In this document: piece after piece, positions 8,894-9,030 of the stretch | How positions within the stretch are numbered: the stretch's first letter is position 1 | How the letters are laid out: every line of letters starts with the position of its first letter | Assembly: GCA_964538435.1 (NCBI GenBank) | Contig: CAZIDX010000005.1 | Location: 35,802-73,110, forward strand | From: an uncultured Gammaproteobacteria bacterium | GTDB taxonomy: Bacteria; Patescibacteriota; Patescibacteriia; UBA9934; GWF2-40-263 | Direction: 5' to 3' | Length of the DNA: 37,309 nucleotides | Position numbers and translations under genes: made by a program | Notes under the pieces: generated by a model | Database searches by the model: none | Seen by the model: only the letters and a program-made list of their open reading frames with translations | What the model was told of the DNA's origin: nothing

Positions 8894-8992
8894 GAAGGAT
8901 CCCCTTCTTAGCAAGAAAAACTGCAATGAGCAGCTTCGAGCTGTTTCCTGGAGGGGATCCTTCGCCCGACTCAGACGGGCTCAGGATGACGT
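8894..8992. repeat. TIR element copy 2, abutting the mtnN RBS
   Basis: GAAGGATCCCCT...GGGGATCCTTCGC...GCTCAGGATGACGT. Downstream complement AATCATCCTGGAGG (9013-9026) contains the mtnN Shine-Dalgarno. Confidence 0.6.
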
Positions 8993-9030
8993 TGTGGAGA
9001 GAAGGTGCTCGAAATCATCCTGGAGGAACA

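Follow-up and report, generated by a model that had tools for sequence, protein, structure and literature searches.

Gene-less inverted pairs of YGTC-tagged hairpins in a Patescibacteriota contig, probably of the CGTC-tagged REP and Ssn-related-motif kind

Two copies of a tagged hairpin repeat

The window analysed here is a stretch of 37,309 nucleotides (nt) of contig CAZIDX010000005.1 (assembly GCA_964538435.1, positions 35,802 to 73,110 of the forward strand), from an uncultured bacterium placed by GTDB in the Patescibacteriota. It contains a palindromic repeat, found once between a major-vault-protein-like open reading frame (ORF) and an mtnN-like gene, and once upstream of rpsP. An earlier note on this DNA had described the repeat as an element with terminal inverted repeats (TIRs) at the mtnN ribosome-binding site (RBS), and had proposed either a riboregulator sequestering the Shine-Dalgarno (SD) sequence or a miniature mobile element. 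The repeat was found to consist of two copies (4863-4974 and 8860-8991) and a half unit (9014-9029). Each copy is an inverted pair of arms of about 25-40 nt with outward-facing (Y)GTC tags. Read from its outer end, an arm is made up of an unpaired (C/T)GTC, ATCCT, GA, a small variable hairpin, GA, AGGAT and C. We consider it probable that these loci are gene-less inverted pairs of the kind formed by CGTC-tagged repetitive extragenic palindromes (REPs) and by Ssn-related motifs (SRMs), the hairpins associated with the Ssn family of GIY-YIG nucleases.

The left arm of copy 1 (4863..4900, plus strand) comprises TGTC (4863-4866), ATCCT (4867-4871), GA, a degenerate 17-nt insert, GA (4891-4892), AGGAT (4893-4897) and the tail CCC. 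A spacer of about 46 nt (4901..4946) separates it from the right arm (4947..4974, minus strand), which has the canonical form CGTC-ATCCT-GA-GC-ATA-GC-GA-AGGAT-CCC and for which the DNA fold predicts the expected hairpin. The inverted repeat of this copy runs from GTCATCCTGA (4864) to TCAGGATGAC (4973) and is 39 nt long and imperfect; the predicted fold has an energy of -49.7 kcal/mol. In copy 2, the left arm (8860..8903, plus strand) is degenerate. It has kept the CTTGTC tag region (8860-8865) and GA-AGGAT-CCC (8894-8903, within GAAGGATCCCC at 8894-8904) around an inner hairpin CCGCC-AAA-GGCGG, but the 5' strand ATCCTGA has been lost, with GCTTGTG in its place. It is followed by a spacer of about 50 nt (8904..8953) with a small hairpin of its own, GAGCAGCTTCGAGCTGTTT, and by the right arm (8954..8991, minus strand), CGTC-ATCCT-GA-GCCCG-TCTGAGT-CGGGC-GA-AGGAT-CCCC, whose DNA fold has an energy of -8.6 kcal/mol (z=-2.6). 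The two spacers are partly alike by alignment (AGAAA.AC.GC ... CCTGGA; repeat families D14 and D17), which bears out the partly conserved core reported earlier.

These arms were also recovered by a covariance model, R1, trained only on arms that adjoin GIY-YIG genes at unrelated metagenome loci selected by protein. In the window, R1 detected exactly three arms (E=2e-7 to 1.3e-4; next match E=0.54), at 4861-4901 (26.5 bits, E=1.3e-4), 4946-4976 (37.5 bits, E=2.2e-7) and 8953-8993 (27 bits, E=9.7e-5). Their tags are TGTC, CGTC and CGTC, respectively. R1 gave no match for the left arm of copy 2 (8860-8903).

Several strings singled out by the earlier note can be placed on this arm plan. GAAGGATCCCCT occurs at 4891-4902 (plus), 8894-8905 (plus) and 8952-8963 (minus), that is 3 matches against 0.15 expected, and none of 100 shuffles reached 3 or more. 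The perfect inverted repeat, put at 11 bp in both copies, is indeed there, but measures 12 bp in copy 2 and 10 bp in copy 1 (GAAGGATCCC / GGGATCCTTC). The shared strings had been taken for termini; the elements run further out, to the (Y)GTC tags, and the boundaries had been drawn too narrowly. The second copy, placed at 4865-4975, exists with the slightly different extent given above. GCTCAGGATGACG matches exactly at 4962-4974 and 8979-8991 as described, but is not a separate 3' box: it makes up the right arm's outer half. Similarly, the complementary box upstream in copy 1, TCATCCTGAAGGAGC, is present but corresponds to the outer half of the left arm. Finally, ATCATCCTGGAGGAAC (9014-9029) is identical to TCATCCTGAAGGAGC of copy 1 at 13 of 15 positions, and is an orphan, a 5' half-arm left over from a unit next to it. 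The GCTCAGGATGACG and TCATCCTGRAGGAG boxes are arm parts and not a regulatory pair of anti-SD and SD.

A cross-phylum repeat family linked to Ssn-type GIY-YIG genes

The family was scanned with the exact pattern GGATCCTTCGC N2-15 CTCAGGATGA, which found arms at at least 120 loci in many phyla, a lower bound. Acidobacteriota, Verrucomicrobiota, Chloroflexota, Clostridia, Patescibacteria, Bacteroidota/Hymenobacter, Gemmatimonadota, Fibrobacter, Myxococcota and Proteobacteria were among the matches listed, and 20 viral contigs matched as well. The full unit consists of GTCATCCTGA, a GCGAAGC-like hairpin and GAAGGATC, followed after 20-40 nt by the inverse. Arms were also found singly, as tandem arrays (L068) and tag-to-tag; tag-to-tag junctions between neighbouring units are common at other loci. 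Head-to-head pairs predominate (107, against 39 tail-to-tail and 41 tandem pairs). Their spacers have a mode of 20-40 nt and a second mode of 250-400 nt, the latter corresponding to gene-bearing units. No target-site duplications (TSDs) were seen in 136 pairs, where 2-mer matches (7/136) were at chance level, nor at either copy in the window. The search for further copies suggested by the earlier note thus yielded many more arms on a conserved plan, but no TSDs. That note had also held that copies with TSDs would tell against regulation; since the family has none, this condition is inapplicable as worded.

Going inwards along an arm, the 5-bp stem is followed by the G·A/G·A internal loop, then by a distal stem of 2-7 bp and finally by 3-45 nt of loop or insert. 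The stem variants are compensatory (ATTCT/AGAAT, ATGCT/AGCAT, ATCCC/GGGAT, ATTGC/GCAAT). At the three unconstrained stem positions, 167 of 207 arms are fully paired, compared with 62 (maximum 75) in 1000 partner shuffles. In an unfiltered alignment of 51 arms, 89.6% of cells are paired versus 71.9% in shuffles (0/500 as high), and all seven pairs show changes on both sides. The arm is a hairpin-forming repeat of 20-50 nt backed by covariation, as expected of SRMs. Outside the stem, position -1 of the tag is occupied by T in 65% of arms and by C in 27%, and conservation ends there. A C directly follows the palindrome in 85% of arms, within a tail C(C/T)C.

When the ORFs around the 120 loci among the matches listed were all clustered, no large recurrent family emerged, and no recurrent Y1 family was found among the gene neighbours of these loci. 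Nevertheless, all three small GIY-YIG ORFs near the listed loci abut an arm. At two of them (L033 and L054) the arms enclose the ORF precisely, the left one preceding the ATG by 14-17 nt and the right one situated at the stop codon or over it. The association was then assayed in reverse, on 80 metagenomic loci picked by protein similarity only. A correctly oriented arm adjoined the gene at 54 of them; it was found upstream in 42/74, downstream in 38/74 and on both sides in 26/68. The real loci contained 211 arms, and shuffled loci 3 in 184 kb. The linked proteins match Pfam GIY-YIG (PF01541) and show 47% identity to the only homologue in N. gonorrhoeae. At locus L196, a gene-less pair and the adjacent gene-bearing unit have the same idiosyncratic, interrupted right arm, indicating that short pairs are deletion derivatives of arm-gene-arm units.

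In isolates, ssn-like genes flanked by the species' own CGTC-type repeats were found in A. lipoferum, S. meliloti, N. aromaticivorans, Sphingobium and A. caviae. On plasmid AZO_p3 of Azospirillum lipoferum 4B (255109-256178; L236), the ssn-like gene has a complete head-to-head pair of CGTC repeats to either side, and the whole unit is inserted in an operon, between sufB and sufC. On plasmid p1 of Planktothrix agardhii (18450-19516; L239), an ssn-like gene is flanked by G·A-type arms similar to those of the window, and is accompanied by tandem half-arm arrays. This unit lies in a defence island, with an MmeI-type restriction-modification gene on one side and the DISARM gene drmA on the other. 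The right arm overlaps the GIY-YIG stop codon at L054 (3785-3809), at L057 (805-829) and at five of the loci L155-L234, so that the protein ends in ...DPSLRSG*. Peptides of this type, derived from arms, probably explain many database ORFs that are spurious or extended.

The system that these loci resemble most closely was described in Neisseria, where a subset of the dRS3 repeats is the oriented repeat NTS (Chenal et al. 2025, Nat Commun 16:2388; PMC11893778). According to that study, SsnA is a single-domain GIY-YIG protein of 94 amino acids (aa; cd10448). It binds the hairpin only as single-stranded DNA (ssDNA) and on one strand only, cuts a few nt upstream, and has no activity on double-stranded DNA or RNA. 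Cleavage depends critically on the three nt before the palindrome, and binding on the C after it. SsnA restricts transformation in meningococci. NTS-like Ssn-related motifs flank ssnA homologues on at least one side in 71% of cases and on both sides in 42%, and the authors liken the NTS-ssnA-NTS arrangement to insertion sequences (IS) and to RAYT-REP systems (all PMC11893778).

The present arms share with SRM/NTS repeats a directional hairpin, an unpaired 5' orientation tag of the CGTC type, here (C/T)GTC, a stem starting with AT and a C right after the palindrome. They also share the IS-like layout of arm, gene and arm around a single-domain GIY-YIG gene of about 90 aa; cd10448-type ssn genes flanked by arms are found in the family, outside the window. 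The degree of gene linkage is alike (one side, 71% published and 54/80 here; both sides, 42% and 26/68), so that our own counts reproduce the published association. A further likeness is that, in some species, a genome carries hundreds of copies between its genes. The two differ in structure, since SRMs have a continuous stem of 8-9 bp whereas in arms of the window type the stem is 5 bp long and is followed by a tandem G·A loop and a distal hairpin of variable size, with an insert of 3-45 nt. They also differ in that the biochemistry is known for SRM/NTS, while the G·A variant is known from sequence and the window holds no ssn gene. Acidobacteriota, Verrucomicrobiota, Chloroflexota, Clostridia, Patescibacteria and cyanobacteria, all hosts here, are not mentioned in the Ssn paper, which does not cite the study of CGTC-tagged REPs either (PMC11893778).

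That study (Di Nocera et al. 2013, BMC Genomics 14:522; PMC3733652) defined these REPs by an unpaired CGTC, TGTC or CCTC tag, a stem starting with AT and a 3-nt tail. They occur in several phyla, mostly as head-to-head dimers with spacers of 20-100 bp and without an associated transposase, and include Neisseria dRS3 and Rickettsia RPE-4/6 (PMC3733652). Our arms have the same unpaired CGTC or TGTC tag, AT at stem positions 1-2 and a 3-nt tail starting with C. They are likewise intergenic, present in several phyla and predominantly head-to-head, with spacers of about 46 and 50 nt in the window. On the other hand, CGTC-tagged REPs have a continuous stem of 8-9 bp, a loop of 4-5 nt and a tail close to CCA, and no enzyme has been reported for them. 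In our arms, G·A/G·A breaks up the stem, so that no continuous one of 8-9 bp was found; the loop or insert varies, and the tail reads C(C/T)C. Literature searches with arm sequence strings returned primer coincidences only. No publication pairing GIY-YIG with REP, REPIN, MITE (miniature inverted-repeat transposable element) or UPF0213 was found; the Ssn paper was reached via dRS3.

Genomic context and the mtnN leader

Downstream of copy 1 lie rpsP (5100-5579), a radical-SAM gene (5619-6665), a SAM-I riboswitch (6753-6856, 60.9 bits) and the vault-like ORF (6959-8839; MVP_shoulder, Vault repeats and Band_7), SAM standing for S-adenosylmethionine. The spacer between this ORF and the mtnN-like gene is 191 nt long and mostly occupied by copy 2. 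The mtnN-like gene (9031..9681, plus strand; PNP_UDP_1, 216 aa, Pfam E=1.2e-32) is a neighbour and not part of the element. Further downstream is the 16S rRNA (17098-18594). An rpsP promoter-like site, TTGACA-16-TATACT (5023..5050, plus strand; 11/12 matches), is located downstream of copy 1, and a divergent promoter-like site (4763-4735, minus strand) on its other side. Both copies lie where the earlier note had seen them, at the mtnN RBS and upstream of rpsP, but copy 1, being between divergent promoter-like sites and upstream of the rpsP promoter, is outside the rpsP leader.

The nearest named homologues of the mtnN product, at about 55% identity, are in metagenome-assembled genomes of Parcubacteria and Uhrbacteria. 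Proteins 75-80% identical to it sit 3' of the same vault-like gene in three relatives (L126, L127 and L131). In L126, rpsP, the radical-SAM gene and the 16S rRNA are found in the neighbourhood as well. This conserved gene order indicates that the window, although heterogeneous in GC content, is one native genome region, which supports the earlier claim that both GC compartments belong to a single genome. The element is absent from the vault-like/mtnN spacers of L126, L127 and L131 (lengths 73, 101 and 242 nt), where the SD is GGGAGG, preceded by an unrelated small hairpin. Thus, the element is a lineage-specific gain and not a conserved leader. A strain variant 98.9% identical to the window carries an identical element. 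Two Logan contigs assembled from short reads of the source population (L123 and L124, from SRR8146440/3) start within copy 1, at window positions 4877 and 4935, as expected of a repeat that breaks assemblies.

Other palindromes were noticed in the relatives. The vault-like/mtnN spacer of L126 has a different palindromic insert of about 130 nt (5770-5920), and that of L127 a 24-nt palindrome (3138-3163) absent from L131. These sequences suggest that palindromes have a hot spot of insertion in this spacer. A SAM riboswitch preceding a vault-like gene is unusual. In the window, it is accompanied by a terminator-like hairpin (6753-6887) before the vault-like ORF, with mtnN following; the relatives keep the order vault-like gene then mtnN, but have a TrmB-family regulator gene instead of the riboswitch.

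At the mtnN RBS, a 9-bp helix is predicted between TCAGGATGA (8981-8989), in the right arm of copy 2, and TCATCCTGG (9015-9023), in the orphan half-arm ATCATCCTGGAGGAAC (plus strand), which holds the mtnN SD GGAGG (9022-9026). The pairing of a TCAGGATGA-type box with the SD region, proposed earlier, thus exists, but it covers only 2 nt of GGAGG. The fold of the 72-nt mtnN leader region (-18.3 kcal/mol) is no better than that of shuffled sequences (z=-0.58). No Rfam family matched at the element at the gathering threshold, nor at E<=10 save for noise. The helix at the RBS is a by-product: the right arm of copy 2 faces a left half-arm that is truncated, in a tag-to-tag junction of the common type. 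We interpret the position of copy 2 beside the mtnN SD as an accident of insertion or rearrangement, after which the truncated neighbouring half-arm came to supply the GGAGG of mtnN. The helix may exert a mild constitutive damping of mtnN translation, which would be incidental and weak.

Other identities were considered and rejected. A context of cyanobacterial HIP1 did not fit, as GCGATCGC is not enriched. A hammerhead-like reading (CUGA...GA...GAA with a GUC triplet) was dismissed by inspection, the CUGANGA core being absent and G·A/G·A symmetric, and a kink-turn for want of a 3-nt bulge. A segment near the 5' end of the 16S rRNA, GATCCTGGCTCAGGATGAACG (17109-17133), looks like the TC-strand of an arm (GATCCT..GCTCAGGATGAC). 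However, R1 scores it at only 7.8 bits (E=7) and the resemblance is lost in the ATTCT, ATGCT and ATTGC arm variants; mimicry was therefore rejected as coincidence. Three further sets of repeats in the window are unrelated to the arms: a 45-nt palindromic pair, 80% identical (3711-3755 / 4309-4353); a family of 29-57 nt with four copies in the high-GC block 1-4000 (546-604, 1047-1075, 1734-1762 and 2499-2557); and a 37-nt pair, 97% identical and 554 nt apart (20745-20781 / 21299-21335).

Alternative explanations and proposed interpretation

The location of copy 2 invites an explanation at the RNA level. In an SD-sequestering riboregulator, the leader would fold so that TCAGGATGA masks the RBS in response to SAM, S-adenosylhomocysteine (SAH) or methylthioadenosine (MTA). 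The 9-bp helix abutting GGAGG, the relation of the mtnN-like gene to the SAM cycle and the genuine SAM-I riboswitch 2 kb upstream would suit such a device. This explanation, put forward by the earlier note, is nevertheless very improbable. Indeed, the arm sequence recurs at the loci described above in unrelated contexts, is missing from the orthologous leaders, and copy 1 sits in no leader. Moreover, the small overlap with the SD, a stability similar to that of shuffles, the lack of an Rfam match and of a conserved unpaired core resembling a ligand pocket, and the fact that Ssn-type repeats function as DNA (PMC11893778) all speak against it. A ligand-responsive switch at mtnN, as an evolved sensor, is not supported. 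An RNA element selected by the host independently of any nuclease, such as an mRNA stabiliser, a terminator or a processing site in the vault-like/mtnN transcript, deserves somewhat more credit, but is still unlikely. Effects of REPs on the stability of mRNA and on termination are known (PMC3733652), the two genes flanking copy 2 are co-oriented, a GNRA-like loop with tandem G·A makes a stable RNA motif and some stem pairs are G·U. Yet copy 1 lies between divergent promoters, an inverted pair presents only one arm in the G·A form per transcript, no T-run terminator is present, and linkage to an ssDNA nuclease accounts for the conservation of the tag and of the 3' C.

Two explanations based on transposition were also weighed. 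The miniature mobile element of the earlier note holds in so far as the copies are gene-less inverted pairs with a gene-bearing form that encodes a GIY-YIG protein, but the absence of TSDs makes it REP/REPIN-like and not a MITE with TIRs and TSDs. A classical MITE, the deletion derivative of an IS with a DDE transposase, is hardly to be expected. It would agree with the intergenic inverted-repeat architecture in multiple copies and with the assembly breaks within copy 1, but not with the lack of TSDs over 136 pairs, with arms that are covarying hairpins often standing alone, or with a linked gene that is a 90-aa GIY-YIG nuclease and not a transposase. The same applies to the comparison with Correia elements and other MITEs: they too are short, non-coding, dispersed, bounded by inverted repeats and able to land by promoters or RBSs and alter expression, but here there is neither a TSD nor a DDE parent IS, and the arm is an autonomous hairpin. 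A REPIN mobilised by a RAYT, the Y1/HUH REP-associated tyrosine transposase, has the same architecture, with two inverted REPs and a spacer, ssDNA hairpins and no TSD (PMC3733652; PMC3116915). In the REPIN-RAYT systems of Bertels and Rainey (2011), the replicating unit is such a pair, a lone small gene is flanked by repeats, and gene-less copies are far more numerous, all of which is matched by the present family. However, those systems have an HUH/Y1 transposase and a GTAG tag in place of a GIY-YIG hydrolase and YGTC. No transposase goes with CGTC repeats according to Di Nocera et al. (PMC3733652), and the recurrent neighbour at the 120 listed loci is GIY-YIG, not Y1. We thus regard RAYT mobilisation as highly unlikely.

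We therefore return to the reading of the window loci as gene-less pairs of the CGTC-tagged REP and SRM kind. By analogy with NTS and SsnA of Neisseria, the arm hairpin would form in ssDNA and serve as the binding site of an Ssn nuclease of about 90 aa, which would cut the single strand a few nt 5' of the tag. In the window, the tag-bearing strands of 4861-4901 (plus), 4946-4976 (minus) and 8953-8993 (minus) would be bound, and then nicked just outside the tag. The arm, ssn gene and arm unit would be the autonomous-looking form, and the window copies miniature derivatives that lost the gene and presumably spread or persist through a nuclease acting in trans and recombination between arms. As a GIY-YIG hydrolase is incapable of Y1-type strand transfer, the copying mechanism must differ from that of Y1 enzymes. 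Whereas the arm plan, the covarying stems, the spread over phyla, the linkage to Ssn-type genes and the lack of TSDs and of the element at orthologous sites are shown by the sequences, we infer cleavage of the G·A variant by a cognate Ssn, the mode of copy movement and the presence of an Ssn in the source genome.

Several observations weigh against this reading. The window contains only two copies, and no ssn or GIY-YIG ORF was found within its 37 kb. The left arm of copy 2 and the half-arm have no intact tag or stem, and so would not be Ssn substrates. G·U-compatible changes among the stem pairs would suit a role at the RNA level too. The published Ssn biochemistry covers NTS/SRM and not G·A-type hairpins. 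Finally, the published SRM pattern, HGTCWYN(0-2)YYVSBRHN(0-5)WNVSBRGN(0-2)RNCYNB, matches none of the 3 window arms and none of 51 G·A-type arms, although it does match NTS and the Azospirillum repeat. For this reason the element was filed as a variant and not as a plain SRM member; marked by its tandem G·A and its distal hairpin, the G·A type forms a variant class that the published pattern misses. We go further, on balance and with clearly less confidence, in suggesting that the G·A arm (YGTC-ATYCT-GA-hairpin-GA-AGRAT-C) constitutes a class of its own among the hairpins recognised by Ssn, and perhaps the most widespread of them. It would be paired with its own Ssn clade in hosts undiscussed so far (candidate-phyla-radiation bacteria, Acidobacteriota, Verrucomicrobiota, Clostridia and cyanobacterial plasmids), and gene-less pairs would behave as miniature arm-ssn-arm derivatives. 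This would unify the 'orphan' CGTC REPs of Di Nocera et al. with the Ssn system.

Altogether, a tempting false positive, a riboswitch-like anti-SD hairpin beside a SAM-cycle gene, is removed. In its place, a very common and poorly annotated cross-phylum repeat, one that causes breaks in assemblies and gives rise to spurious ORFs such as ...DPSLRSG*, is assigned, with the probability stated at the outset, to the Ssn ssDNA-nuclease system. For the bacterium itself the consequence is modest: a repeat fragment provides the mtnN SD and may slightly affect translation. If G·A arms are Ssn substrates, the specificity of a nuclease family under development as ssDNA tools would be wider and the Ssn system would reach many more phyla. 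The puzzle, raised in 2013, that CGTC REPs have no dedicated enzyme would then receive a concrete answer.

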